Shown here in pieces: positions 8,009-40,681 of a stretch of DNA of 64,000 bases. A model generated the notes under the pieces. It was given only the letters and a program-made list of their open reading frames with translations. It ran no database searches and had not been told where the DNA came from. The position numbers were made by a program, and so were the translations under genes. Positions within the stretch are counted from its first letter, which is position 1; every line of letters starts with the position of its first letter. The stretch comes from an uncultured virus (IMG/VR IMGVR_UViG_3300047357_001465). Taxonomy: Duplodnaviria > Heunggongvirae > Uroviricota > Caudoviricetes. The DNA is taken from IMG/VR virus record IMGVR_UViG_3300047357_001465; one strand, 5' to 3'.

Positions 8009-11000
8009 ATGGCTATAGAAAATAGTTACCTACCACCAGGTGTTTACACAAGCACCGTATTTGGGAATCAAAACCAAAACCAAGCTCGACTGCAAGGCAG
8101 GGTGCCTACCTTAATCGGCACAGGTCGCCAGACCATCGAGAGCAAGGGCAGTCTCCTCGTAAGAGGCTCGTCTGCTGTGGTTGATCAACGGATCGTAGAA
8201 GAAGATCCATCAGGCAGAATGGTTGCAGGAGAGAATCCCGATGGGAGTTACACCTATCAGGACTTCGACGGCGAGACAAACCAACTTCAGGTCAGGAAAT
8301 GGCCTATCGTCACGGGTGACGGGTCTGGGACTAACGCTACGGTTCCTTCTTCTGTTACCGTGAGCATCAACGGCATTAACACTGTCGTTCTCGCAGTTGA
8401 TGGTGCTGAAGGAGTTCTTACTATCGCGGAAGCCCCTAAGCAAGGAGACGACGTAAGAGTTTCTTACTTCTTCAACCGCACGGACACTTTCGTAGAAGAG
8501 GAAAACCTTTCTAGTCAGGTGTCTCCTTTCGACACAGAACTTCTCGGAAGTAGTTCCCCCTTCGTGATCGACAATACCTCTAACACTCTTATCTTAACTG
8601 TAGATGGTGTGACAGGTGTTATCACACTCCCTAACGGAGCTCAGGGTGATCGAGCGAACTCCCTCCAGCGTGTCATCGCAACCATTAATGGTGCAGGGCT
8701 TGCTTCTCTCGAAGCAGACTCCTACAAAGACACGGAAGGTGGCGACAACCTCATCCTGACAGCAGAGGGGTCGATCCTTGTAGGTAACGGCACAGCTAAC
8801 ACCACTATCGGTGTTTACTTGAACCAGACAGGCAATGAACGCACCCGCACGTTCTTTACTCAGTATGGCCCTATTGTAGACGGAACAAACAGTGGAGTTA
8901 TTACTACCTCCACTGACAATGTGACCGTTAGGGTTGACGGGGTAATTGTAGCGGTTGAGTCTGTAGACGGTTCAACGAACGCTATCACCCTCGCACTCCC
9001 CCCTAAAGTAGGTACTGTCATTAGTGTTGACTACTACCACAATACTTTCAGAGATCAGTTCGACTACGTGTCGGGTCGTGACATCACCTCCATCGACAGA
9101 GTTTCTCTTGTCGCATCAGGCGGTGGCTCAGCGGCCTTGTTTGTCGAAGACGTGGACTTTGTACTCTCAGACGACAAGATTGTCTGGGGTACAGCGACAG
9201 TTGCCTCTGCGGGTGCAGTACAGAATGGCCAGACCCCTTTCGGCAACAACCAAGTGTCTCCAACTCTCCGAGATGAGAGAGCCTATCTTTTAGAGTGTTC
9301 TTCTGTAATTACGAATGCCGTCCCTCCTAGAGTCCTCCAAAACGTCTTTAAACTCCCCTTCCAGCCCGTTGACGGATCTGGTGCAGGGAAAGCCACTAAC
9401 AGAGCTGATCTTGTCACAGTGAGGACAGGAGTCTCCCTCTCAGACGCCCTTGTCAACCCTCTTGCAGTTGTGACTAAGGTTGACCCTCAGACTTCACAGG
9501 TAACTCTCGCCTCTGATATCCCTGCGAACCATAAGGTGTTTGCGAGCTTCTACTACTCCAATATTCAAGACAAGTTCGGAGATAAAGCGTATCGAGTCGA
9601 GGTTGAGTCTGCGGGAGCTTCTGGAGTTGGCACTTACTCTGTTAAGTCTTTAAACGAGACTCTTTATAACGTGACTCTTGAAGACAAAGGTACAGACCTT
9701 AGTGAAATCGCCTTGAACTTCCCTTCAGGGTCTGAGTCCATGTCAGGTGCTAGAGTTATAGGAGGCACCCCTGTGGCGGAGAATGTCACCGTTGAGCTTC
9801 GTAGTTACGACGAGACTCCTGCGATCTTCTTCACCGAAGGCTTCGGAGACTACTTCCTCGTCGAGGGTGCTTCAGACACTCTTGCTATTGAGGCAGACCT
9901 TCAGGCAATCACGATTGACTTCTCTGCCCCTATGGGTGCTGGTCGTAACGGTCACATTGCGACTCTTGTAAGTGACTTACTTACGTATGACGTTGCGAGC
10001 AACAACACTAACTACGGTGCGACAGCATTAACAAGAGCGGTCACTCTCACTGTGGATGGCGTAACTCTCGCAGAAGCTTCTATTAACGGCGTAGGTGACG
10101 ATGTTGAGACTTGGGTCGGTGCTATCAACACAGCAGCGAACGCTTCTGCACCTGTTTACACAGCCATGTCTAGCTTCTCTGCTTGGGAAGCGAAGGCAAA
10201 TTCATATGCTGGCTTCAAGTTCCGTTTCGTCGGCGACTCGAATGGTGCTTCTGCCGTAGCCTCTGCCACGATTGGTGCGGCTGTTTACCTCAGCCCCGAC
10301 GACCTCGCTAACGCTGTTGGCGTGGCGATTACTAATGCAATCACCGCAGACATCGTTGGTGCAAACGCAGACTTTACAGGTCTTGATCTCAGTTGCTCTG
10401 CGGATAACACGGGCCGTTTAGTATTTAGTTTGGATTCTCTTCCAAACGCTAACGACTCATACGGATTTATTGAGTTCATCGCAGATACTGAAGATACGTT
10501 CCTCAGTATTGCAGGCGTAGACTTCGATACTCAGAACGCAACCACGAATGGCAACGGCACTCAGACTAAGTTTGGTTTCCTCCCTGTCGCGGCACACTCA
10601 CGCACCACCCTTACTTCAGGCGAGCTCCGTGACCGCTTGATTCTTAAAGGTAGGACTGTTATAGGTAACAAGTACTTCCCAACATCAGATCTAGGTGTAT
10701 CTGTTGATCAGGGTGTGCGGGTCGAAGATGCTGGCCTCAGTGCTGGCGACTCCGCTGTTGCTTCAAGAAGATCTGTAGTTGATGCCCCAAGTGTCCTCCT
10801 TCGTTTGGGTTGGGGTGATGTAGACGCTCTTGGTATTCCTGCAAAGACACTGTACAGTGCTGGCAATGACCAGAATGACACTCTTGTTCTTGAGATTGAC
10901 GGTAGTACTGTCACTATCAATTTATCAGATGCTACGGCTCAAGGTAATCTCACTTCAATTACAGATATCCTTGATGATGTAGTAATCGCGGTAGGTGTAA

Positions 11001-12820
11001 ATGCCACTGCTCACATTGAGGGTGCGGGCATCCGTGTTATCAATGCAAACTCTAACATTGATTCCTATATTAGAGTTGGTGCAGGTAACGGTAATTCATC
11101 TTTCGGTTTAACTGAGGGTGAGTCTGTTTCTTCTGTAGGTGTCACCGCCCAAGCTTTGACCTCAGCTCTTATGAGTGATGTTGTTGCGAAGGCCTCTTTC
11201 GCAACTGCTCTCTTCTCTATTGAGCCAAGCACAGACGCAATCGCGGGTCACTACGCAGAGAAAGCTGTGTCTTACCTCCACGTAAACCAAACAGGTCGTA
11301 GTTTTGTTGGTTTCGAGAGTCTCTCAACTAGTACCAGCTCTATCCTTGAAGTTACAGGGGGTCGTGTTGCTACAACTAGAGGAAGTGGTACGAAGATCAC
11401 CGTAGGCGACGGAGCTGTCGGAGAGAATGCGTATCAAGGGTTTGTGGTCACTTCCGATAACCCGAAGGGTTCGGGGTCAGCTAATGACTCACGCCTCAAC
11501 GACGGTTCTGGCTCAGATGGTGTTGTAGGACAGACTTATATTGATTCAGTAACAGGCCTCACCTTCTCCCTCCTCGCAAGAGAAGGTGGTTTGTCATACC
11601 CTACAGGTGTCAACGCAAGAGTTCTCTTCAGCGTATCCACTACCCTGACAACCGACGCTAATATTCCTGTGTCTCTCATACAAGGTGTTGAACTCACTGT
11701 GTCTAACACACTCAACACACAGGCAGGAGACATTGCTCTCGTAGAGACTTTTGTTAAGAGTGGTTCTGAGCCTTCTATAGGTCAGACCTACTATGTTGAC
11801 TTCACCCGTGTTAGATCACTCTTTAACACTCGTACCTTCACCTCTCTCGGAGACGTGGTAGCCACCTATGGGCCTCTGAGTCCAGAGAACTCTTTGAGCT
11901 TGGGTGCTTACCTCGCGTTTGCTAATGGTGCTTCTGCAATTGCTTGTAGGCAGATCCCTCTCGCGAAGGGTCAGAGTATTGCTACCGAGGATCAAGTCAT
12001 CTCGGCAATTTCTGGTGTTGAAGGTGAGATCACACCAGGTCTTTCACCTTCTGTGATTGTGCCTGTTTATCCTGCGACATCAGCAATCCTCTCCGCAATC
12101 TCTAACCATTGTGACATTCAGTCTTCACTTCGTTATCGTTCAGAGCGTCGTGCTGTTGTTGGCGTAAAACCTGGCACTCAGCCAAGAGAAGTTCAGCTTC
12201 TCGCACAAGCAACAGGAAACTCAAGAGTTTGCATTGTTTACCCTGACATCGCCACTCTTACTTTCATAAACGACGTGGGAGTCAGTCAGAGCTTCCTCGT
12301 CGGCGGTGAATATGTTGCGGTGGGTGTCGCTCTTGCTACAAGCAACCCTAGTGTAGACAGTGCGACCCCTTGGACGGGTCGTGTAATCAATGGTCTTTCT
12401 TCACTTTCAAGAACTCTTGATGAGGTTGACGCGAACGCGACAGCTAAAGCGGGTGTGACTGTTATAAGTCAGAGAGCGGACGGTATCAAGGTCAGACATG
12501 GTTTGACCACAAACATGACTTCTACTCTCACTAAGACCCCTACGGTTATCCAGATCGCAGATGACGTTCAGATTCGATCTCGTAACCTCTTGAGTAGGTA
12601 CATCGGTGTGAAGTACGTACCTCAGGTCATACAGCAGATTGAGGGTCGTTTGAACGCTTTCTTGAAGCAACTCGTCCGAGACCAGATCATCTCAACCTAC
12701 ACAGGCTTGAGTGTTCGTCGAGATCCCGAAGACCCAACCCAATTGAACGTGGAGGTCTTCTACAAGCCCGTGTACCCCCTCCTCTATATTCAATTCACCT
12801 TTACTCTTCAGGGTGGCTGA
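8009..12820 (+). CDS. contractile tail sheath protein with large insertions
   Basis: N-terminal YLPPGVY; C-terminal sheath core ending VEVFYKPVYPLLYIQFTF. Confidence 0.85.
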   Translation: MAIENSYLPPGVYTSTVFGNQNQNQARLQGRVPTLIGTGRQTIESKGSLLVRGSSAVVDQRIVEEDPSGRMVAGENPDGSYTYQDFDGETNQLQVRKWPIVTGDGSGTNATVPSSVTVSINGINTVVLAVDGAEGVLTIAEAPKQGDDVRVSYFFNRTDTFVEEENLSSQVSPFDTELLGSSSPFVIDNTSNTLILTVDGVTGVITLPNGAQGDRANSLQRVIATINGAGLASLEADSYKDTEGGDNLILTAEGSILVGNGTANTTIGVYLNQTGNERTRTFFTQYGPIVDGTNSGVITTSTDNVTVRVDGVIVAVESVDGSTNAITLALPPKVGTVISVDYYHNTFRDQFDYVSGRDITSIDRVSLVASGGGSAALFVEDVDFVLSDDKIVWGTATVASAGAVQNGQTPFGNNQVSPTLRDERAYLLECSSVITNAVPPRVLQNVFKLPFQPVDGSGAGKATNRADLVTVRTGVSLSDALVNPLAVVTKVDPQTSQVTLASDIPANHKVFASFYYSNIQDKFGDKAYRVEVESAGASGVGTYSVKSLNETLYNVTLEDKGTDLSEIALNFPSGSESMSGARVIGGTPVAENVTVELRSYDETPAIFFTEGFGDYFLVEGASDTLAIEADLQAITIDFSAPMGAGRNGHIATLVSDLLTYDVASNNTNYGATALTRAVTLTVDGVTLAEASINGVGDDVETWVGAINTAANASAPVYTAMSSFSAWEAKANSYAGFKFRFVGDSNGASAVASATIGAAVYLSPDDLANAVGVAITNAITADIVGANADFTGLDLSCSADNTGRLVFSLDSLPNANDSYGFIEFIADTEDTFLSIAGVDFDTQNATTNGNGTQTKFGFLPVAAHSRTTLTSGELRDRLILKGRTVIGNKYFPTSDLGVSVDQGVRVEDAGLSAGDSAVASRRSVVDAPSVLLRLGWGDVDALGIPAKTLYSAGNDQNDTLVLEIDGSTVTINLSDATAQGNLTSITDILDDVVIAVGVNATAHIEGAGIRVINANSNIDSYIRVGAGNGNSSFGLTEGESVSSVGVTAQALTSALMSDVVAKASFATALFSIEPSTDAIAGHYAEKAVSYLHVNQTGRSFVGFESLSTSTSSILEVTGGRVATTRGSGTKITVGDGAVGENAYQGFVVTSDNPKGSGSANDSRLNDGSGSDGVVGQTYIDSVTGLTFSLLAREGGLSYPTGVNARVLFSVSTTLTTDANIPVSLIQGVELTVSNTLNTQAGDIALVETFVKSGSEPSIGQTYYVDFTRVRSLFNTRTFTSLGDVVATYGPLSPENSLSLGAYLAFANGASAIACRQIPLAKGQSIATEDQVISAISGVEGEITPGLSPSVIVPVYPATSAILSAISNHCDIQSSLRYRSERRAVVGVKPGTQPREVQLLAQATGNSRVCIVYPDIATLTFINDVGVSQSFLVGGEYVAVGVALATSNPSVDSATPWTGRVINGLSSLSRTLDEVDANATAKAGVTVISQRADGIKVRHGLTTNMTSTLTKTPTVIQIADDVQIRSRNLLSRYIGVKYVPQVIQQIEGRLNAFLKQLVRDQIISTYTGLSVRRDPEDPTQLNVEVFYKPVYPLLYIQFTFTLQGG

Positions 12821-21354: not shown

Positions 21355-21387
21355 AGTCTTGCCCTTGAACCAATGAAAGGAGTACCT

Positions 21388-23202
21388 ATGTCTAGGTATA
21401 CTCGTTCTAAGTCTCAGAGGTCTTCTTCTGCCCGAAGGAACCTCCGTTCACGCCGTGCTAACTCAGCTATCCCAGGTTATGACAACCTCGGCTGGGAAGA
21501 TTTCGGCCACCCCGCTTCAGCAGACCAGCCTAGTCTTGAGGACTATGGAATCGAATCAGATTTCGGTGAGGGTGTACGCAAAGGTCCTTACGGCGACAGT
21601 CCTGCACCAGCTTCTTACGGATGGGAGCCAGATCATCCCGCTTCAAGAAGTGCTAGCCTCCGTGACCGAAAGCTCCGTAAAGCTATGGAGCGTAAGGCTG
21701 CCAAGTGCATCAAGATTGCTGAGTCTCGTCTCGGCAAGTCTGCGTCTCAGCGTGAGATTGAAGACCTCGCACTCCGCTTCATGGATCTCCCAAATAAGGC
21801 GGTTAACACTCGCGTAGCTAGCCTCGACCACCATATGGGTATGGAAGATCTCGATGCAGATGAAGACGACATCATGGCAATGATGGACCACCATATGGGT
21901 ATGGAAGACCATATGGGTATGGACGACCATATGGGCATGGAAGATCTCGATGCAGATGAAGACGACATCATGGCAATGATGGACGATCATATGGGTATGG
22001 AAGACTTCGATGCTGATGAAGACGACATCATGGGCATGGAAGACCATATGGGTATGGACGACCTCGATGCAGATGAAGACGACATCATGGCAATGATGGA
22101 CGACCATATGGGTATGGAAGATCTCGATGCAGATGAAGACGACATCATGGCAATGATGGACGACCATATGGGTATGGAAGATCATATGGGTATGGACGAC
22201 CATATGGGTATGGACGACCATATGGGTATGGAAGACTTCGATGCAGACGAGGACGACATCATGGCAATGATGGACGAACCTGTGGCACATGGCATCTTTG
22301 ACGAGTATGACCTCGACATGGATGGGATGATCAGCCCAGAAGAGTTCGGAGGTTCAGCGGACGCTTTCAACGCTATGGACAGCGACCTCGACGGCTTCCT
22401 CTCTAGGGAAGAAGCTTCTGTCGGACTCGGTGACTCTTTTGGAGAAGAAGCCGCTGAAGTTCTCGCGGAGGAAGTGACTATGCTTAAAGCCGCGAATGCT
22501 CGCCTCTCACGTAAAGTCCGCAGTCTCTCTGTTCGCATGGCATCTCAGGAAGAGGCTTCTGAAGAAGAAGCATCTGAAGAAGAAGCCGAAGAGAAGGAGA
22601 CTTCAAAGAAGAAGGCAAGCACTTCTCGTCGTATTGCCCGCATCGAGAGACTTGCTAATGCACTCTCTGATTACATGGCTGAGATGGAGCGTCAGGCATC
22701 TGAGGAAGAGGCTTCTGAAGAAGAAGCATCTGAGGAAGAAGCTGAAGAGAAAGAGACTTCAAAGAAGAAGGCTAAGGAAGAAGAGGCATCTGAGGAAGAG
22801 GCTTCTGAAGAAGAAGCCGAAGAGAAGGAGACTTCAAAGAAGGCTTACCACTCAATGGCTGACGTTCTCGCCGACCTTGAGATAGAAGCAGACGAAGAAG
22901 AGATCGTCGCAGAAGATCCTATGGGTCTTGATGCTTCAGACCTTGGCATGATCGACCCTAAGCTTGCTTCAATCTTCACCGCTTCTGACGAAGATGACGA
23001 AGATGACGAAGATGCAGACGAGACAGAAGATGGCGATAGCGAGGAGAAGGAGACTTCAAAGAAGGCCTCTTACCGACCAAGCAAGAGAACTCGTCAAGCT
23101 TCTGTGAAGACACTCGGCAACATCAGCCGTGAGGCATCTAGCTCAGACGAGCTCTCTAAGCTCTGGGAATCAGCCCCAGACGTTTCTAAGTTCTTCGGGT
23201 GA
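21388..23202 (+). CDS. capsid scaffolding protein with tandem repeats and an EF-hand pair
   Basis: Acidic low-complexity protein between the protease and capsid genes; AAGGAG RBS before ATG 21388. Confidence 0.65.
   Translation: MSRYTRSKSQRSSSARRNLRSRRANSAIPGYDNLGWEDFGHPASADQPSLEDYGIESDFGEGVRKGPYGDSPAPASYGWEPDHPASRSASLRDRKLRKAMERKAAKCIKIAESRLGKSASQREIEDLALRFMDLPNKAVNTRVASLDHHMGMEDLDADEDDIMAMMDHHMGMEDHMGMDDHMGMEDLDADEDDIMAMMDDHMGMEDFDADEDDIMGMEDHMGMDDLDADEDDIMAMMDDHMGMEDLDADEDDIMAMMDDHMGMEDHMGMDDHMGMDDHMGMEDFDADEDDIMAMMDEPVAHGIFDEYDLDMDGMISPEEFGGSADAFNAMDSDLDGFLSREEASVGLGDSFGEEAAEVLAEEVTMLKAANARLSRKVRSLSVRMASQEEASEEEASEEEAEEKETSKKKASTSRRIARIERLANALSDYMAEMERQASEEEASEEEASEEEAEEKETSKKKAKEEEASEEEASEEEAEEKETSKKAYHSMADVLADLEIEADEEEIVAEDPMGLDASDLGMIDPKLASIFTASDEDDEDDEDADETEDGDSEEKETSKKASYRPSKRTRQASVKTLGNISREASSSDELSKLWESAPDVSKFFG
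21826..22275 (+). repeat. coding tandem repeat (D/E)DHMGM and EDLDADEDDIMAMMD
   Basis: Repeated gaccatatgggtatgga / gatgcagatgaagacgacatcatggcaatgatg units. Confidence 0.95.
22545..22845 (+). repeat. coding repeat EEASEEEASEEEAEEKETSKK (3 copies)
   Basis: Seen in DNA and protein; a partial fourth copy near 23041. Confidence 0.9.
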
Positions 23203-33585: not shown

Positions 33586-34917
33586 TTAGATAAGTTCAAG
33601 TATGTACAATACTCTACCCAAGCCAGAGCTAACCTTAACCCCTCTAGCACTAGAAACCTTTTGAGACTCTCTCAGAAAGAATAAAGGATCGAACTCTAGC
33701 TTAGTTTCGCCCTTAAGTATACAATCTCTCAAGCTTCCCTTGAGGTCAGATTTACTTAAAAAGTGCAATATGACCTCTGGGTTGATGTAAGACTGCTTCG
33801 TTGTTTTGGGTGAGTCATGAGAGAGGGCGACTTGAGCACTTTTATGTGCTTTATCCAGAACTTTGCAGATCTCGTCTATGGTCTTCTCCGCCGCCTCTTC
33901 CACCTCAAGATCAACATAAGACTTTATTTTTAACATTAGAGTGTCTCTCTCTTGCTTCAATGTCTCATAAACCGCTTCTGTGGCCCGCAGCTTCCTGAAG
34001 TCTGTAATTCTTAACTCGCCGAAGTTTTCCTTAAAGTACTTCTTGAGGTGCCGATATTTGAAATCCTCCCCAAAGAGGTAATCTGAACTATGACCCTCAA
34101 AGCCCTCTATGTACTCTCTAAGTACTTTAGTTGTAGTGGTATCAGTTAGAGATGCCCTGTTGACAACACCTTTCTTACCCTCAAACCGTAAGAGGATCGT
34201 CCCATCTCCCTGTAAACGCAGGTGCTCTCTCTTCAAAGTGAGAGCTCCGAAGGTTTCGATCTCCTCACCTTCAGCTAGGATCGCATTCCCATGACGACCT
34301 GGCCTGATGCCTGTCTCTAGAATAATTAACAAGACTAGAGCGGAGATCTTGTCAAAGCCGTATTTTGAATCCAGAGAGGACTTTAAGGTCTTCTCTATGT
34401 CATCATACTGCTCTAAGATCTTACGTTGATTAAGAGCCTTTTCTGCAACCGTGTACGTCTTGTTCGCAAACAGCTCTCCGATGTTCTTGACCCTGCCTTT
34501 ATCATCGACATCAACTGTAATGGTGTCGGGAAGGTAGGCCCTTAATTTCTTAGGTATTGTCTTAAGGAACAACTTCTGCTTCTTATAGAGCTGAATGTCC
34601 CTCCTCGACTTTAGTGTAATCTTCCCTTCACCGTCAAGAGCCTCTTTGAGTGTGAGGTCACCCAAGAGGTGGTCGGTTATGATCTTAACCGTTTTATTCC
34701 TCTTAGTCTTGAAGGAGTCCTCTGTCAGAGGCCCTACAAACTTCTGTATATATCTCTTCACTTGGGGGAGAGACTCTATCAAAAGCCTTAGCTCTTTCGC
34801 TTTCGTACTCCCCTCTTCTATGGTGCGAGGGTACTTTTTCAGCGAGGAAAGGAGAGACTTAAATTCCTTTAGAGACCTGTCTCTGAAGTTGATTGTTGCT
34901 TTATCTATATCGTTCAT
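33586..34917 (-). CDS. DNA topoisomerase IB
   Basis: Catalytic pentad R (ETGIRPG), K (FEGKKG), R (DFRKLRA), H (LSHD), Y (SYINP). Confidence 0.85.
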   Translation of the reverse strand: MNDIDKATINFRDRSLKEFKSLLSSLKKYPRTIEEGSTKAKELRLLIESLPQVKRYIQKFVGPLTEDSFKTKRNKTVKIITDHLLGDLTLKEALDGEGKITLKSRRDIQLYKKQKLFLKTIPKKLRAYLPDTITVDVDDKGRVKNIGELFANKTYTVAEKALNQRKILEQYDDIEKTLKSSLDSKYGFDKISALVLLIILETGIRPGRHGNAILAEGEEIETFGALTLKREHLRLQGDGTILLRFEGKKGVVNRASLTDTTTTKVLREYIEGFEGHSSDYLFGEDFKYRHLKKYFKENFGELRITDFRKLRATEAVYETLKQERDTLMLKIKSYVDLEVEEAAEKTIDEICKVLDKAHKSAQVALSHDSPKTTKQSYINPEVILHFLSKSDLKGSLRDCILKGETKLEFDPLFFLRESQKVSSARGVKVSSGLGRVLYILELI

Positions 34918-34973: not shown

Positions 34974-35339
34974 CTACTTGAGTGTGCCGTCAAACTCTTC
35001 GAATTCTATGTCTTCGATTGGGTTTTTTTCGGCGTGCTCAGTTTTTTTTTGCGTTGGATGCGAGGAACCGTCCTTATCTAAGGCAGAAACCGCGACATGA
35101 GTATACTTATCAAGAGCGGCCTGCCCGAGAATGTACCCTATCTGGATGAAGCCTGAAGTGACGATCATCGTAACCAACACCATAAATGCGTAGTGTTCAA
35201 TTTTCGTCTGATATTCCCAGATGACATAGAACATCAAGATTTTCCATCCAAGGTCAGCGATAAGGTATGCCAAGAACTTCTTACTCTTGAGTGGGAGCTT
35301 ATCGAAGATGGTATGGTCTTTTGGTTTTTCGGTGGTCAT
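34974..35339 (-). CDS. 2-TM membrane protein (holin-like)
   Basis: KSKKFLAYL start of TM1; second hydrophobic helix; GQAALD. Confidence 0.6.
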   Translation of the reverse strand: MTTEKPKDHTIFDKLPLKSKKFLAYLIADLGWKILMFYVIWEYQTKIEHYAFMVLVTMIVTSGFIQIGYILGQAALDKYTHVAVSALDKDGSSHPTQKKTEHAEKNPIEDIEFEEFDGTLK

Positions 35340-35348
35340 GGGTTCCTC

Positions 35349-35723
35349 TTAATTCACTCGGAGTTTGGTTCGCTTGTTAGTGGATTTGTTAACTGTTTTT
35401 GGGAGGTGGTTGTTTCCCAAGTTCACTCTAGTTGTCATAGAACTCTGGAAGTCGTCCTCTATGGTTTGAGTGTATTTACGAGGGGGAGTGCTGTAGGCAT
35501 ATATAGTCTCCAGCCTACCCTGCTCTTCAGGGAGCATGGAAGACAGCAATGCTTGGAAGTCGTCTCTCGCCTTTTGATTTCCGTCAGACAAGAACTCTAG
35601 GATCAAATGGTCTGGGAGAAGGGGAGGGTTTTCAAAGTCGCCTGTCACACCTTTCAGGGTGTTCTGTCCGTTGTCTCTAATCCAATAGTTAGACATCTCT
35701 CTCCCCCTCTTCTTCTTCACCAT
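35349..35723 (-). CDS. hypothetical protein
   Basis: In an operon; true start probably at MSNYWIRD. Confidence 0.5.
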   Translation of the reverse strand: MVKKKRGREMSNYWIRDNGQNTLKGVTGDFENPPLLPDHLILEFLSDGNQKARDDFQALLSSMLPEEQGRLETIYAYSTPPRKYTQTIEDDFQSSMTTRVNLGNNHLPKTVNKSTNKRTKLRVN

Positions 35724-36186
35724 CTTCGGTGTCTTTGGTTTTAGGTATCCAACTCTCTACAACATTCTTTAGAATGATGTCTTCTTCTTTCTTTGCCTTA
35801 ATCACACCCTCTCCTTGGAATAAAGATAGCTTGTCAATCACAGCAGATTGGAGATCGAATATTTGTTCGCGAAGAAGTTGCATCTGTATCTGAGCATCCC
35901 TTAATCTCGCGATCAGGGCTTCTCGATCTCCGTTTGCGGACGCGAGTTTGTCCTTGAGTTCTTCTACTTCAGAGGGGTCTCTCCCTGAAGCTATTGCGAG
36001 CATAGAAGATATAGACCCCGTGAGCATACCTATGATCCCAATCAGGATGTCCCTATTTTTCTCTACTATTTCGTGCGTAGAAAGAAAGTAGATGAGTATG
36101 ACAATAAGACACATGAAGACGACAGACGCCCACCAGCCTCTTTTAGCTTTCTCTGATTGAGTGAACTGCTTATTTGTCTGGTTCAT
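35689..36186 (-). CDS. 2-TM plus coiled-coil membrane protein
   Basis: Two hydrophobic helices followed by a heptad-like segment. Confidence 0.65.
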   Translation of the reverse strand: MNQTNKQFTQSEKAKRGWWASVVFMCLIVILIYFLSTHEIVEKNRDILIGIIGMLTGSISSMLAIASGRDPSEVEELKDKLASANGDREALIARLRDAQIQMQLLREQIFDLQSAVIDKLSLFQGEGVIKAKKEEDIILKNVVESWIPKTKDTEDGEEEEGERDV

Positions 36187-37057
36187 CGCTAAATCCTATT
36201 CTTTTCTGCAGGTCTTTTTTAACAAAATCGTAAGACTCTGAGACGTAATCTACGACGCTGTCATAGATGGGCATAGTATAAGGAAGCCCTATTAATATTC
36301 TTGACATGGGTCTAACAGATATTTGAAATAGGACATATAGAATCACGATAAGAGAGATTACCCCAGCTCTCCATATGACCCAATTTACCCAATCTAGGAA
36401 TTCCCTATCTCTAGCTCTTTTCTTTATATACTTCGGGCCACCCAGCCTTTTGACTTTCTCAGAACTTGGAGGGGGCTGAAGAGATTCCACACTCTGCCCA
36501 ACTGCGTAAACCTCCTGCGGGGTGCTCACCCCTTTGAAGCGATACATACCAACGCAGGCATATCGAGTGTCCTTAGGGGTACGGGTATTAGTTCTACTCT
36601 TAATGTTGACAAATGCTTCTTTCGTCAACAGAACTTGACCTGCTTGGCAGAGGCTCATAGTTCGAGCCGCTATGTTTTTAGCTAAGCCCTCTAGTTCAAT
36701 CCTTTTAGCACCAGCACCGACGAAGAGTTCATCTTGTTGCACCTCTATGATCCGACCCCAATGGATGCCTATACGGGTAGTCAGCCGAGTCTTCTTTGGA
36801 ACTGTCCTCTGATAGCTGAGAGCAAAGTTGACGGCATCAACAGTCCTGTTAAAAGAAAGTAAGAACCCGTCACTTCGGTCTATTTCTCGACCGTCATGTT
36901 TATAGATTAAAGACCGTGCGAGCCTATCATGAACCTGAAACCACTGAGCCGACACATGGGCACCATTCTTTTGAACGAATGCGGTAGACCCAATTATATC
37001 TAGCAAGACGATTGCTAGATAACGTTCTTTCATCGTGACTTCAGTGGGGACTTTCAT
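36170..37057 (-). CDS. class III nucleotidyl cyclase with a C-terminal TM anchor
   Basis: LLDIIGST, IDRSDG, RIGIHWG, NIAAR, GQVLLT and YRFKG. Confidence 0.85.
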   Translation of the reverse strand: MKVPTEVTMKERYLAIVLLDIIGSTAFVQKNGAHVSAQWFQVHDRLARSLIYKHDGREIDRSDGFLLSFNRTVDAVNFALSYQRTVPKKTRLTTRIGIHWGRIIEVQQDELFVGAGAKRIELEGLAKNIAARTMSLCQAGQVLLTKEAFVNIKSRTNTRTPKDTRYACVGMYRFKGVSTPQEVYAVGQSVESLQPPPSSEKVKRLGGPKYIKKRARDREFLDWVNWVIWRAGVISLIVILYVLFQISVRPMSRILIGLPYTMPIYDSVVDYVSESYDFVKKDLQKRIGFSDEPDK

Positions 37058-37058
37058 A

Positions 37059-37268
37059 CTACTCCCAGAGGCTCTCTATATTGCTACAAGTAGTATTCAA
37101 GATCCTCTGAGCTATGACCTTATCGCAATTGTCTATGTAAGGTCGGTATCCGACACATTCTTCAATGTAGTCTATAGCCTCTTCGCAAGGTGTCTTCACG
37201 GGATCTTCCTGATGTCCTGCTTCACAAGAGCTTAAGGAAAACGCTATTAGTAAGGCGATCTTCTTCAT
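37059..37268 (-). CDS. small Cys-rich lipoprotein
   Basis: MKKIALLIAFSLSS-C lipobox. Confidence 0.65.
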   Translation of the reverse strand: MKKIALLIAFSLSSCEAGHQEDPVKTPCEEAIDYIEECVGYRPYIDNCDKVIAQRILNTTCSNIESLWE

Positions 37269-37588
37269 TACAAGTACCCTACGAATGCGAATTCTTGTTT
37301 TTTAACAACTTCGAGAGGAGAGTTCTCATACTTTTTGATTAACCACATGATGTAGTAGTCTCCTGGGATAAACCCAGCGGACAACCTCTCCGAGACGTAG
37401 TAGATTCCAGATTGATCTTGAAATGGCACTCTACCACCCTGCCCTACTCTCCATTGACCTCTAGCATGGTCTTTAGCATGGAATTCATAGTAGATGACGT
37501 AAGGGTCAAAAGCACCACCACTCTGGTCATACAGCATGATGTATAAATCATTAGGGCCTAACTGTTGCCCTTGAGTATATACAGGCAT
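37268..37588 (-). CDS. hypothetical (possibly virion) protein
   Basis: 106 aa; beta-rich; coupled operon. Confidence 0.55.
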   Translation of the reverse strand: MPVYTQGQQLGPNDLYIMLYDQSGGAFDPYVIYYEFHAKDHARGQWRVGQGGRVPFQDQSGIYYVSERLSAGFIPGDYYIMWLIKKYENSPLEVVKKQEFAFVGYL

Positions 37589-37589
37589 T

Positions 37590-37943
37590 TTAAATCACCG
37601 AGATGATGTTGTTGACTGAGGATGAGGCGACAGCTTTTTTAACAGAAATGGTTTGTTCCGCTTTGACCTCAGATTCGTCCCCTACAAGATTAGCGACGTA
37701 CTCAACAAAGAGAGTTTGCCCTTCGACATCATTAGGAATTGTAATCTTAGTGATGAACCTATGATCTTGATCTGTCTGTTGCATGGCAACTGGGCCTGTG
37801 ATCACTGTCCTTACGACACCTTGATACTTAAATAATGTCGCGGTGACATTAGCAACTTGAATGGGTTTGCTATCTTGACCTATCCAAGATACTTGACAAG
37901 GGTGCGACTCAGAGACCTCTGCTTGAGAATAGTACGCAATCAT
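37590..37943 (-). CDS. hypothetical (possibly virion) protein
   Basis: 117 aa; strong RBS; upstream late motif. Confidence 0.6.
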   Translation of the reverse strand: MIAYYSQAEVSESHPCQVSWIGQDSKPIQVANVTATLFKYQGVVRTVITGPVAMQQTDQDHRFITKITIPNDVEGQTLFVEYVANLVGDESEVKAEQTISVKKAVASSSVNNIISVI

Positions 37944-37994
37944 AACCCCCCTCCTTCATATGTATTATATGTATTTATGAAGGAGGGGGGTTAT
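37942..37994 (-). promoter_or_regulatory. perfect 19-bp inverted repeat occluding the RBS and start codon
   Basis: ATAACCCCCCTCCTTCATA ... TATGAAGGAGGGGGGTTAT. Confidence 0.8.
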
Positions 37995-38517: not shown

Positions 38518-39189
38518 TTAGAGGACGTTACCGAGTCCGTCATATACTACCACGTAAGGATCAACAACAGCACCTCCGACAGTGCGAGTGCTTTTAAGAC
38601 CGAGAAGATCTCCCTTAGCTACAGAAATCCAGAAGCTTGAGTCCTCCTCAAGGACAGGGCTCACGACACCGTAGTCAAAGAAGCTCGTCGCTACAGGCTG
38701 AAAAACCCCAGCCACTTCTACGACATGACCTGCGGGAACGACGTATCTTGCCCCTGCGAGAATCTGTAGGATGTCTTCTACAGAAGCTGTAGAGGTTGCA
38801 ACCCCCACGCCTGCGGTAGCTACGGTCACCGCGACAACAGCATTAATAGCCGCGAGGTCGAGAGTGTTACCTGCTCTCATCTCAGCCACTAGAGCATCTG
38901 CGATGGTCTTTGCGTCCGCTGATGTGATAGACGCACCTACGGCAGGGTCGTTTGCACCATCATCGAGATTGACTAGGAGATAAGCCGCGAGGCCTCTCAC
39001 TTCCGTAGTCACCACCCCAGCCGCTACTGTAGGGAGTGTGGTGGTTTCAGCTACGCGAAGGTAACGAGGCCCTTGCGGTGCGGGGTCAACCACAGGGTTG
39101 GCTTGTGATCTATTAGGCCACATATCTTTAACAAGAATCTGGCCGTTAGAGATAGATGTGTCTCTGATACAAATTGCTGGACTTGGCAT
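38518..39189 (-). CDS. virion structural protein, paralog 3 of a triplet
   Basis: Shares D(L/M).PN.SQ.N, S(F/S)W.IS and VY..D/LG motifs with its neighbours. Confidence 0.65.
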   Translation of the reverse strand: MPSPAICIRDTSISNGQILVKDMWPNRSQANPVVDPAPQGPRYLRVAETTTLPTVAAGVVTTEVRGLAAYLLVNLDDGANDPAVGASITSADAKTIADALVAEMRAGNTLDLAAINAVVAVTVATAGVGVATSTASVEDILQILAGARYVVPAGHVVEVAGVFQPVATSFFDYGVVSPVLEEDSSFWISVAKGDLLGLKSTRTVGGAVVDPYVVVYDGLGNVL

Positions 39190-39201: not shown

Positions 39202-39912
39202 TTAGATGTAGAGTGAGCCGTCATCACCATAGATGACAACGTAAGGTGCAGGGTTACCGCTAGCGTCTACCCTCTCCTGAGCTTTGCGAAGCTGACCTCT
39301 CTTTGCAGAGATCCAGAAAGAGGGGTGGTTGTTGAAGTCACTCCAAAGACTAGCATAGTCGGCAGGGTTCGTGAGAGATCCCGCTTGATCTAGACCCGCG
39401 AGAGGCACGAAGGCACCTGCATCTTGCACGTCCTGACCCGCTGGGATACTGAAGACTTTGTAGCCCGAAATAATCTGAAGAACCTCAAGCACTGTGCCTG
39501 TAGAGTTACCCAGAATGCCGTCAAGGTCATTACCCACGGCGGTGTTTTCAACGATAACAGCATTGATGTCTGCGATAGTAAGACTTTGAGCAGAACGCAT
39601 TCTCAAGATGAGAGCATCTGCGATGTCGTTTGCTTGATCACTAGTAAGGGCGATGCCCGCCGCCGCAGTATTCTCTACAGTAGTGAGAAGATAGACCGCG
39701 AGACCCGTGAGGTCAGTAGTCGTAGCGAAGTTGACATCGAGGGCAACGTCCTGACTAATGTCCCTTGTATGGCCATAGAGATAAACGGGCCCTTTGAAGT
39801 TAGGGCTGATAGTAGCATTCGACTGTGTCTTATGCGGGTAGAGATCAGTGATCTGTACTGAAACACGTCCGTCAGTTGAGTTAGTTACTCTTGGGGTTGC
39901 AAGAAATGGCAT
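39202..39912 (-). CDS. virion structural protein, paralog 2 of a triplet
   Basis: Start MPFLATPR with an AGGAG RBS; shared motifs. Confidence 0.65.
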   Translation of the reverse strand: MPFLATPRVTNSTDGRVSVQITDLYPHKTQSNATISPNFKGPVYLYGHTRDISQDVALDVNFATTTDLTGLAVYLLTTVENTAAAGIALTSDQANDIADALILRMRSAQSLTIADINAVIVENTAVGNDLDGILGNSTGTVLEVLQIISGYKVFSIPAGQDVQDAGAFVPLAGLDQAGSLTNPADYASLWSDFNNHPSFWISAKRGQLRKAQERVDASGNPAPYVVIYGDDGSLYI

Positions 39913-39925
39913 ATCTAATCTCCTA

Positions 39926-40681
39926 TTAGCTGTAGAGAGTACCGTCATCGTTATAGACGGTAAGAAGAGGCGAGGTAGAGCGAACTCCTGCGAAAAGGTC
40001 GCCGTAGACGCCGTCTCTAACAGAAGTTAAGCCCGAGAGTGAACCCTCAGAGAATGAGATCTTCCAAGAAGAGTCTCTCGGCACAAGTGTTCTCATTGTA
40101 GAGCCGAGTGTGCCAGGCGAGAGTACAAGCTCTTTAACCCCGTCTGCATCCTGAATGGGAACTCCTGCGTTCACGATGTAATCTTCACCCGCTAAGATCG
40201 CTAGTACTTCTACCAACGACCCTGTGCTGTTCGAGTTAGCGACGCTAACCCCATCGAGGTCAGTAGGTGCGTTAACAACATCCGCACCTGAAAGAATTGT
40301 GTTGATGTCTGCAGTCTGGAGGGTAGATCCAGCTCGGACTCTAGCGACGATGTTCGTAGCCGCTTGTTCAGCTTGAACTAAGCTCAGAGCAGGGCCTGTA
40401 CCCGCACCGTTAACATCTGCCGCAGGGTCAGCCTCTATGTGAGCTATAAGATATGCTATGAGGCCGTTACTTCTTCTGAGAAACTCGATTGAAGTATCTG
40501 CGTTGACTTTCAGCACAGGGCGACCGACGCCTGTTGAACCGACATTTGCAGTTCGGACATAGAAAGGGCCTTGCCCTCGCGGATCGTTGACGAGGTTTCT
40601 TTGAGACTCGTTGGGGAACAAGTCTGTGATCTGAACTGATCCGTTTTGGATTTCAGGTCGTCTTGCAATGATATATGGCAT
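39926..40681 (-). CDS. virion structural protein, paralog 1 of a triplet
   Basis: Shared motifs; upstream late motif and AAGGAG RBS. Confidence 0.65.
   Translation of the reverse strand: MPYIIARRPEIQNGSVQITDLFPNESQRNLVNDPRGQGPFYVRTANVGSTGVGRPVLKVNADTSIEFLRRSNGLIAYLIAHIEADPAADVNGAGTGPALSLVQAEQAATNIVARVRAGSTLQTADINTILSGADVVNAPTDLDGVSVANSNSTGSLVEVLAILAGEDYIVNAGVPIQDADGVKELVLSPGTLGSTMRTLVPRDSSWKISFSEGSLSGLTSVRDGVYGDLFAGVRSTSPLLTVYNDDGTLYS

Follow-up and report, generated by a model that had tools for sequence, protein, structure and literature searches.

A predicted membrane-anchored nucleotidyl cyclase and a two-helix coiled-coil protein form a conserved gene pair in uncultured phages

Introduction

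Cyclic mononucleotides are signals in bacteria and, more recently, have also been recognized as alarm molecules of antiphage systems, in which they open membrane effectors. A gene pair that may follow a similar logic in viruses is the subject of this study. It is located in a stretch of 64,000 nt (in the following: the window) of the uncultured Caudoviricetes record IMGVR_UViG_3300047357_001465 and is predicted to encode a class III nucleotidyl cyclase with a C-terminal transmembrane (TM) helix and a protein with two TM helices and a coiled coil (in the following: the partner).

Proteins with two TM helices are well known from phage lysis. Class II holins have two TM helices, and T and RI of phage T4 form a holin/antiholin lysis clock that includes lysis inhibition. 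We know of no lysis clock that contains a cyclase.

Among described cyclases, the bacterial protein XC_0250 of Xanthomonas campestris is of special importance for the comparison. It has a length of 886 amino acids (aa) and consists of a cyclase domain and TPRs, and it fits the family TIGR04510 by architecture and taxon. In the part of the publication considered here (An et al. 2013, PMC3770947), the cyclase domain is reported to produce cyclic GMP (cGMP), to have no adenylate cyclase activity, and to signal via a cGMP-binding GGDEF protein of the host. The second group comprises the cyclases of the Pucsar systems, which, according to the part of a preprint considered here (10.64898/2026.08.12.744502), produce 3',5'-cGMP and are paired with TM effectors without a canonical cNMP-binding domain.

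Searches of the literature on phage-encoded class III cyclases, on TIGR04510, and on links between cyclases and holins retrieved no paper on the gene pair; they did not extend to supplements, including the clade tables of the Pucsar preprint. In the parts considered, a review on jumbo phages (PMC7824862) and a paper on phage G (PMC12484599) do not mention such a pair.

Results

A class III cyclase with a membrane anchor

The original prediction had described a cyclase with both metal-binding Asp residues and an NxAAR motif, in which the usual KxxGD is replaced by IDRSDG. These elements were all found in the 295-aa protein, i.e., D20 and D63, the latter within IDRSDG (residues 59–64), as well as GAKRIELEGLAK (residues 116–127) and NIAAR (residues 128–132). 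The score for the Pfam family Guanylate_cyc (PF00211, residues 16–176) was 23.4 bits and exceeded the cut-off of 21.9. D20, D63, N128, R132, and K175 were invariant in 26 sequences with 59–90% identity. By their motif positions, N128 and R132 are presumably the transition-state Asn and Arg, and K175 the phosphate-binding Lys. Because the five catalytic residues are invariant, the protein appears to be under selection as a catalyst.

A model calculated with AlphaFold2 (AF2) from the 26 relatives had a pLDDT of 80.6, and a Foldseek search with it yielded 188 PDB matches at E <= 0.001. The best solved structures, both by sequence profile (E 1e-10 to 4e-9) and by fold (TM-score 0.87–0.90, normalized to the target; root mean square deviation 2.1–2.7), were those of Ma1120 (4wp8, 5d0e) and Rv1900c/LipJ (1ybt, 1ybu). 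The identity to these proteins is 23–25%, and their pair of metal-binding Asp residues aligns with D20 and D63. By Pfam threshold, predicted fold, and catalytic residues, the 295-aa protein is a class III nucleotidyl cyclase, the activity of which is predicted.

Ma1120 and Rv1900c, which have minimal mycobacterial class III cyclase domains, are soluble and act as adenylyl cyclases; their specificity positions are occupied by Lys/Asp or Asn/Asp, whereas the phage cyclase has E58/D60 and E121, and neither of the canonical purine-specifying pairs (Lys/Asp for ATP, Glu/Cys for GTP) is present. GREIDRS-DGF aligns to GREVNTAGDGF of Rv1900c with a gap of one residue; relative to Rv1900c and Ma1120, the loop before D63, which carries E58 and D60, lacks one residue, and E121 is opposite the Asp of HGTDVAG. 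A further difference is an insert of about 8 residues in front of the GAK motif. By these alignments, both specificity positions are acidic and non-canonical, as the original prediction had proposed for IDRSDG, and therefore the product was not predicted from them. The best guess, which is taken from the likeness to XC_0250, would be cGMP; it is a lead and not a result.

The catalytic domain is followed by a very conserved basic linker (SLQPP..SEKVKRLGGPKYIKKRARDR), a hydrophobic helix, and a tail of about 47 aa with the conserved positions R253, G257, P263, and D266. The claim that phage-borne DNA encodes a membrane-anchored cyclase agrees with the viral record and with the predicted C-terminal TM helix. 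According to the positive-inside rule, the catalytic domain would be cytoplasmic and the tail periplasmic.

The NCBIfam family TIGR04510, which the original prediction had named, was by far the best family match (E 2.5e-44, 152 bits, model positions 7–204 of 814). The likeness was confined to the catalytic domain, and the whole protein remained far below the cut-off of 400. For comparison, a true member, a Xanthomonadales protein of 833 aa with EIDRSDGF and GAK..E..G (L122:5950-8451), reached 434.3 bits. Membership was thus rejected on score as well as on architecture. The N-terminal cyclase domain of the EIDRSDGF subtype is present in the phage protein, but the long TPR-containing C-terminal region of about 600 aa is missing, and the protein ends 47 residues after the TM helix. 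TIGR04510, together with XC_0250, is nevertheless the closest family of catalytic domains. A PP..S.K linker after the domain is common to both, and in Xanthomonadales members of this type, a basic stretch and a hydrophobic helix follow the domain, as in the phage cyclase. The phage protein differs in length (295 aa versus 800–1000), in the lack of the TPR region, in its viral origin, and in its pairing with a 2-TM protein; in addition, it has retained the canonical Asn (KNIAAR), which is replaced in TIGR04510-like cellular proteins (KP[IL]AAR). Residues L157, A161, and A150 of the part of An et al. considered here fit the register of AARLMSAA in the 833-aa member, whereas D41 and D71 do not map, and no conclusion was drawn from this comparison.

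Relatives of the cyclase are abundant. The protein collection contained 809, of which the best 120 all had lengths of 238–306 aa and identities of 61–99%, and IMG/VR contained 294 viral loci; a tblastn search of 50,697 GenBank phage records yielded no match, and by this result the cyclase is absent from cultured phages. A scan of bacterial genomes (one genome per species) revealed 53 loci from Rubrivivax and other Burkholderiales, Xanthomonadales, Sumerlaeota, and Vicinamibacterales. All of them were 32–41% identical and matched residues up to about 205–223 only, so that neither a close (>41% identical) nor a full-length form was found in the bacterial genomes scanned. Twelve translated cellular relatives had lengths of 506–1124 aa (the shortest runs to the end of its locus) and shared G.EIDRSDGF and GAK..E..G...AAR with the phage cyclase, with a Pro in place of Asn128.

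Cyclase and partner form a two-gene cassette

Synteny was quantified by tblastn for the best 80 of the 294 IMG/VR cyclase loci, within the flanks examined. The 2-TM coiled-coil protein was adjacent to the cyclase in 79 of these loci, and the only exception (L038) ends 97 bases past the cyclase gene. Hence, all 79 informative loci contain the partner. The two genes overlap by 17 nt in the window, and overlapping or abutting stop and start codons are similarly found in the relatives. In one locus (L033), the two genes occur in reverse order on the same strand. The pairwise distances of cyclase and partner were correlated, with a Mantel r of 0.79 for 24 distinct pairs that was reached by none of 999 permutations. 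The original prediction had assumed a functional operon of five genes, which was not borne out, because the lipoprotein, the small protein, and the second 2-TM protein were found in far fewer of the 80 loci than the partner (Table 1).

The window is part of a viral record of 105 kb with an estimated completeness of 34%. Family scans revealed genes for a major head protein, a head protease, a giant protein that contains a sheath domain, RecA, a clamp loader, UvrD and SNF2 helicases, and a topoisomerase IB. The capsid protein is 96–98% identical to those of four viral records of 227–376 kb, one of which (312 kb) has terminal repeats. The identity is 89% to the capsid protein of the 485-kb uncultured phage LR745208.1 (W01) and 38–47% to those of Bacillus phage G and a Tunturiibacter phage. 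The stretch recurs in seawater and marine metagenome runs from many separate studies.

The flanks of the gene pair follow at least four patterns. In the group of the window, the pair is flanked by giant-phage genes. In another pattern, a small terminase, a terminase-size open reading frame (ORF), and a DNA methylase are found on one side and a Mu-like portal, a protease, and a cement protein on the other, and the presumed capsid protein of this terminase-portal group showed no likeness to that of the window (E 0.78). On this evidence, the pair is present in at least two unrelated phage types. The mean identity of the pair within and between the compared phage groups was 55–76%. LR745208.1 lacks both genes, whereas both are present in the four genomes with capsid proteins of 96–98% identity. 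Because of the strict adjacency, the correlated divergence, the differing flanks, and the joint absence from the 485-kb relative, the conserved unit is a cassette of two genes, which is inherited and has apparently moved as one piece.

Two loci deserve a separate mention. In a viral contig of 153 kb (L341 2153-4944), about 1.4 kb lie between cyclase and partner; this was the only such case seen, and an inserted gene may be responsible. Near the pair of a 227-kb relative, an ORF of 1040 aa (L015 9292-12414) contains intein-splicing and LAGLIDADG domains, which indicates that the gene at this site is interrupted by an intein.

Relatives of the partner are encoded in lysis cassettes

In the partner, a basic N-terminus precedes two hydrophobic helices, which are followed by a helix of about 50 residues. 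TM2 varies hardly at all and contains many small residues (G50, G53, T56-G57-S58-I59-S60-S61-M62, I65-A66-S67-G68); its mean hydropathy is about 1.8 (hand sum), and TM helices were called also from crude hydropathy counts over 19 residues. Invariant motifs of the coiled coil are RLRD.QIQ and L.Q..I..LS. An alignment of 24 sequences contained 56 invariant columns, including nearly all of TM2 and the turn GRDPSEV, and had a mean column identity of 63%. The AF2 model was of moderate quality (pLDDT 68.6, pTM 0.30), so that the lack of a fold match in BFVD at E <= 0.001 carries no weight. No family name was obtained from Pfam, NCBIfam, PADLOC, or PHROG, and the ESM Atlas contained only unnamed viral clusters.

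A profile search of 1.84 billion representatives retrieved 115 proteins, many of which have 110–140 aa and span both helices as well as the coiled coil. An hhalign comparison of the paired partner family with twelve short relatives gave 99.65% (E 4.9e-25, 113 columns), and a wider search yielded 1933 partner-type proteins without useful names. The partner and three distant relatives had no tblastn match in the 50,697 phage records, but matches of TM helices and coiled coils may be hidden by the low-complexity filter of BLAST.

To characterize the context of the relatives, 160 viral loci were fetched, and the 80 of at least 8 kb were used for counting. None of the 160 loci contained a cyclase within 4 kb of the partner relative, and none of 5 whole records contained one. 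Instead, the neighbors included endolysins (Peptidase_M15_3 and Amidase_2) and a holin (GTA_holin_3TM, PF11351 / phrog_3427). An endolysin cluster was directly adjacent to the partner relative in 33 of the 80 loci and within two genes in 38, the holin cluster was within three genes in 21, and one or the other was nearby in 40. These values are lower bounds, as only four clusters were annotated. In small marine phages, the gene order is often endolysin-relative-holin with overlaps of 4 nt. The only PHROG matches of the relatives were phrog_9990, phrog_1009, and phrog_6664, all of unknown function. Judged from these contexts, the partner is a member of a large phage family without a name that occurs in lysis cassettes of small marine phages, and its relatives would work without any cyclase. 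The original prediction had named, as outcomes that would speak against it, neighbors that are unlinked in relatives and neighbors that are ordinary holin or spanin genes. Three neighbors were indeed unlinked in most relatives, whereas the linked one belongs to a lysis-cassette family and to no known holin or spanin family.

Intermediate partner relatives (L229-L264, e.g., L241 3995-4507) have 170–265 aa and E values of 1e-34 to 1e-45 against the partner profile. They occur in phages of 36–133 kb among genes for SSB, ThyX-like, and deaminase-like proteins, which were named by eye from their opening residues. Neither a cyclase nor any of the four annotated endolysin and holin clusters was found near them.

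Comparison with immune systems and lysis proteins

The original prediction had noted an echo of the Pycsar architecture. The likeness to Pycsar and Pucsar systems concerns the two-gene logic, i.e., a class III-like cyclase next to a small membrane protein. At the level of protein families it did not hold. PycC models matched the cyclase only marginally (PDLC02367: E 9.8e-4, 16.6 bits; PDLC00766: E 7.2e-3, 13.8 bits; PADLOC without cut-off), and because the match to TIGR04510 is much stronger, the domain was placed outside PycC. The partner and the other neighbors matched no PADLOC family at E <= 1 and neither cNMP_binding nor TIR in Pfam. The effectors of Pycsar and Pucsar belong to the 3-TM pJV1-spdB3 family or are CNBD-TIR proteins, whereas the partner belongs to a 2-TM coiled-coil family. 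In addition, those systems are bacterial, while the source of the phage pair is viral DNA and its cyclase carries a membrane anchor of its own. Membership in Pycsar or Pucsar was rejected, based on the marginal cyclase match, the lack of an effector match, and the occurrence of the close form in viral contigs only; membership in CBASS was rejected as well. By analogy, the pair would work most like a Pucsar-TM pair that has been turned to the phage's own use. The lack of a binding domain in the partner does not exclude gating by a nucleotide, because the Pucsar TM effectors, as described in the part of the preprint considered, also lack one.

SLATT effector domains of CBASS-type conflict systems resemble the partner in having two TM helices that are followed by cytoplasmic helices, and in being encoded beside a nucleotide-generating enzyme. 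Homology was rejected, as the scores for SLATT_fungal were well below the cut-offs (Pfam PF18142: 14.8 bits, E 0.03, cut-off 26.5; NCBIfam NF033635: 12 bits, E 0.15, cut-off 35).

Like class II holins and the T/RI system of T4, the partner is small and has two TM helices, one of which is rich in Gly, Ser, and Ala, and a predicted topology with both termini inside. A periplasmic accessory protein as a possible input would be a further parallel to RI. Unlike holins and antiholins, the partner has a long conserved coiled coil, predicted to be cytoplasmic, and in giant phages it is not encoded beside an endolysin. Thus, the arrangement of a small membrane protein beside an endolysin applies to the distant relatives and not to the window gene.

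A spanin pair was also considered and rejected. The partner has two predicted TM helices versus a single N-terminal one in an i-spanin, and its coiled coil would be cytoplasmic instead of periplasmic. The lipoprotein gene is located upstream of the cyclase gene, whereas an o-spanin gene lies within the i-spanin gene or directly behind it, and is absent from 62 of the 80 loci. The residue at position +2 of the lipoprotein is Glu in the window, Asp or Glu in 8 of the 9 family members printed, and Pro in L030. By the rules for E. coli, Asp or Glu at this position keeps a lipoprotein in the inner membrane, unlike an o-spanin.

Possible functions of the cassette

The explanation that we tentatively prefer, and which we regard as possible if not quite probable, is a membrane complex, formed late, in which the synthesis of a cyclic nucleotide is coupled to a holin-family protein, by which membrane permeabilization or the timing of lysis would be controlled. 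Late expression is suggested by the gene contexts, which are structural in the window and of the terminase-portal type in the other group. The translational coupling suggests a complex of the two proteins, the contact of which is putative. Because the partner occurs without a cyclase and the cyclase was never seen without the partner, the cyclase would be a regulatory input that was added to an autonomous membrane protein.

Under this explanation, both proteins would be made late and reside together in the inner membrane of the host. The dimeric cyclase domain would share the cytoplasmic face with the partner's coiled coil, as the predicted topologies indicate. Synthesis by the cyclase would take place at the membrane and yield a 3',5'-cyclic nucleotide, most likely cGMP if the enzyme resembles XC_0250. 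The partner might be gated by the nucleotide or by the enzyme, or, conversely, might report the state of the membrane to the enzyme. The outcome would be control over the time of membrane permeabilization, i.e., lysis timing or lysis delay. In the lineage of the window, the periplasmic lipoprotein and the tail of the cyclase could, speculatively, supply a signal from outside.

A stronger version appears rather unlikely to us, namely, that marine giant phages and some smaller phages run a second-messenger lysis switch of their own, in which cGMP or another cyclic nucleotide, or the enzyme, directly gates the holin-family protein and sets or postpones lysis, possibly in response to periplasmic cues that the tail of the cyclase and the lipoprotein would read. 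If control of a holin-family protein by the cyclase were verified, it would be a new kind of input to a phage lysis clock and an entry point to the large unnamed family of lysis-cassette proteins. With gating by nucleotide or enzyme, the partner would be the first holin or antiholin with cyclic-nucleotide gating, and the system would be a viral mirror image of bacterial Pucsar-TM immunity. As both genes are small and easy to express, the question is directly testable.

Lysis timing had been among the options of the original prediction. It gained indirect support from the occurrence of the partner family in lysis cassettes, but no lysis cassette surrounds the pair in giant phages. Several observations of this kind weigh against the preferred explanation. 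The only endolysin-type gene found in four related giant-phage genomes encodes an Amidase_2 protein (315–331 aa) at a distance of 23–103 kb from the pair. In the two of the four fetched regions that were inspected by crude hydropathy (G001, G004), its neighbors included no TM proteins, and none of 55 window proteins matched a lysis-category PHROG. Among the relatives of the partner, the neighborhood of endolysin or holin was found in half of the 80 loci and not in all, and the protein itself has no assigned role in these small-phage cassettes. The partner matches no named holin family in Pfam, PHROG, or NCBIfam, and its mean column identity across the 24 sequences is high for a holin, as holins are usually less conserved. 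It contains no nucleotide-binding domain recognizable with Pfam, NCBIfam, or PADLOC, and a cNMP_binding domain was found in none of 5 related giant-phage records, 3 of which are at least 95% complete. Last, the transfer of the product from XC_0250 is uncertain, since XC_0250 is linked to TIGR04510 by architecture, and the cellular proteins have Pro where the phage cyclase has Asn128.

Some results on the giant-phage genomes stand apart. In L309 3928-4878 and L310 3491-4438, the ORF for Amidase_2 (315–316 aa) has no neighbor with TM helices by a crude hydropathy count and is not part of a classical endolysin-holin cassette. Peptidase_M15_3 was found in none of the 5 giant-phage records, and a search of the 5 records for PF11351 gave no match, but neither did the control genomes.

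The foremost of the other explanations, also unlikely in our view, is signaling directed at the host. Here, cAMP or cGMP made by the phage would act on host receptors (of the CRP type or cGMP-responsive GGDEF proteins) and reprogram metabolism, motility, or the cell surface, and the 2-TM protein would merely anchor or regulate the cyclase. The invariant residues suggest that the cyclase is active, and as the 5 records encode no cNMP_binding receptor, a canonical receptor, if any, would be that of the host. Five Xanthomonadales genomes contained 8–19 cNMP_binding matches each, and XC_0250 is reported to act through such a host protein in the part of An et al. considered (PMC3770947). Yet signaling to the host explains neither why the cyclase has a constant partner from a lysis family in all informative loci nor why the contexts are late or structural rather than early.

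A phage-borne killing module similar to Pucsar or Pycsar is improbable. A competing phage or another trigger, sensed by the cyclase, would lead to synthesis of a cyclic nucleotide and opening of the 2-TM protein as an effector that disrupts the membrane, which would result in superinfection exclusion or in abortive infection against competitors. The two-gene logic of a cyclase and a small oligomeric membrane protein is the same, the effectors without canonical binding domain in the Pucsar preprint set a precedent, weak PycC matches exist, and the cassette, which moves from one phage type to another, occupies moron-like sites, e.g., that between terminase and portal. These similarities have to be weighed against the marginal size of the PycC scores, the lack of a PADLOC match of the partner at E values up to 1, and the failure to find the close form in the bacterial genomes scanned. 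Furthermore, the partner family is found in lysis cassettes and not in defence islands, and the pair is held at 55–76% mean identity within and between the compared phage groups, whereas defence genes turn over fast.

Counter-defence is very improbable. It would imply that a phage nucleotide, or a drained pool, jams, pre-empts, or decoys the cyclic-nucleotide immunity of the host. Such immunity and counter-measures are widespread, a decoy-nucleotide logic is known on the host side from Panoptes, as far as the sources were considered, and the specificity residues of the cyclase are non-canonical. No evidence points to this function, and it leaves the membrane anchor and the obligate partner from a lysis family unexplained. 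Phages are known to counter such immunity by degrading or sponging the signals and are not known to do so by making them.

Least credence is given to ordinary lysis genes (holin, antiholin, spanin) with a passenger or inactive cyclase: the partner family occurs in lysis cassettes, a lipoprotein and a further 2-TM protein are encoded close by, and no other holin was recognized in the giant phages (for PF11351 an uninformative result, as the controls gave no match), but a passenger would not show strict adjacency across unrelated phages, correlated divergence, and invariant catalytic residues, the endolysin is not near the pair, and neither the lipoprotein, with its Asp or Glu at +2 and its absence from most loci, nor the partner, with two TM helices, fits a spanin.

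The gene run and its lineage-specific members

The five tightly coupled minus-strand ORFs that had been predicted at 34974–37268 were all recovered at these positions (Table 1). They are part of a head-to-tail run of seven minus-strand genes from 37943 to 34974 with gaps or overlaps of 1–35 nt. The junctions among the five are, in order, a 1-nt gap, the 17-nt overlap of cyclase and partner, an overlap of 8 nt (ATGTCTAA) or 35 nt, and a 9-nt gap with GAGGA. The two upstream genes are joined equally tightly, by a TAATG overlap and a 1-nt gap. None of the seven genes had a PHROG match.

Table 1. Features of the gene run in the window and their positions
Feature	Coordinates	Strand	Basis and remarks
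Perfect inverted repeat	37942..37994	-	19-nt arms 37942-37960 / 37976-37994, 100% complementary, 15-nt loop
117-aa protein, first gene of the run	37590..37943	-	no Pfam/PHROG match; 15/80 loci
106-aa protein	37268..37588	-	no Pfam/PHROG match; 15/80 loci
Cys-rich lipoprotein, 69 aa, lipobox LSSC, 5 Cys	37059..37268	-	translation; 18/80 loci
Tail-anchored class III nucleotidyl cyclase, 295 aa, core gene 1	36170..37057	-	Pfam PF00211, N-terminal part of TIGR04510
Catalytic cyclase domain, residues ~8-205, predicted cytoplasmic	36443..37036	-	Pfam, NCBIfam, AF2, Foldseek, structure profile
Single C-terminal TM helix of the cyclase, residues ~223-248	36314..36391	-	translation, conservation, AF2 helix 208-248
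2-TM coiled-coil protein (partner), 165 aa, core gene 2	35689..36186	-	adjacency (79/80 loci), profile search, hhalign
Two TM helices of the partner, residues ~17-37 and ~47-68	35983..36138	-	alignment, AF2 helices 4-37, 45-66
Long helix (coiled coil) of the partner, residues 71-123, predicted cytoplasmic	35818..35976	-	alignment, AF2
Small soluble protein, 124 aa (probably 115 aa from ATG 35696, overlapping the partner stop as ATGTCTAA)	35349..35723	-	no family; 6/80 loci
Second 2-TM protein, 121 aa	34974..35339	-	no Pfam/PHROG family; 5/80 cyclase loci

The inverted repeat separates the DUF5659 gene, which lies upstream, from the first gene of the run and marks the upstream limit of the run. 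As minus-strand RNA, it folds into a hairpin of -36.1 kcal/mol (z -6.9), and none of 200 shuffled sequences folded as well. The 3' arm of the hairpin contains the Shine-Dalgarno motif of the 117-aa gene and extends to the first bases of its start codon. The hairpin is either a terminator without a clear U-tract or an element of translational control.

The 106-aa gene was always seen together with the genes for the 117-aa protein and the lipoprotein. An alignment of the lipoprotein family by eye revealed the pattern C-E-x-A-x-D-H/Y-I-x-x-C-V-G-Y-R-P ... T-P-C ... L-W with four further conserved Cys. In L032 and L041, which belong to another group, unrelated small Cys-rich lipoproteins occupy the same place. 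This position hints at a recurrent periplasmic accessory, though a lipoprotein is absent from most loci. Relatives of the small soluble protein have 116–120 aa. For the second 2-TM protein, 36 related loci were found, 11 of which contain the pair within 5 kb, in two arrangements, and in three long records the distance is about 14–17 kb. It thus appears to be a gene of the giant-phage clade, with at most a loose linkage to the pair.

In one seawater metatranscriptome run, two short contigs were identical to window positions 35618–35781, which span the junction of the partner and small-protein genes, and 37663–37814. Contigs from RNA libraries may be carried-over DNA and show neither level nor strand, and the two contigs do not count as evidence of expression.

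Further genes of the window

Directly downstream of the run, 33586–34917 encodes a 443-aa protein with a topoisomerase IB core of the eukaryotic type (PF01028, E 1.3e-13), which is kept at 44% identity in one relative of 297 kb (L030). The genes at 38518–39189 (223 aa) and 39202–39948 (248 aa), and perhaps that at 39926–40681, look like tandem paralogues by eye. Common to the 223-aa and 248-aa proteins are a stretch close to the N-terminus (D-x-[WY]-P-x-x-[ST]-Q-[AS]-N) and a C-terminal one (SFWIS...PYVV[VI]Y), and a PKD-like domain was faintly matched by one of them. Both may serve as decoration or fibre proteins of the virion. At 8009–12820, the last approximately 330 residues of a 1603-aa ORF match tail sheath families (phrog_2839, Phage_sheath_1C), while sheath proteins are usually far shorter. 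Between the genes for the head protease and the major head protein, 21373–23202 encodes a protein of 609 aa, in which calcium-binding motifs of the EF-hand type were recognized (PF13202, E 1.8e-9).

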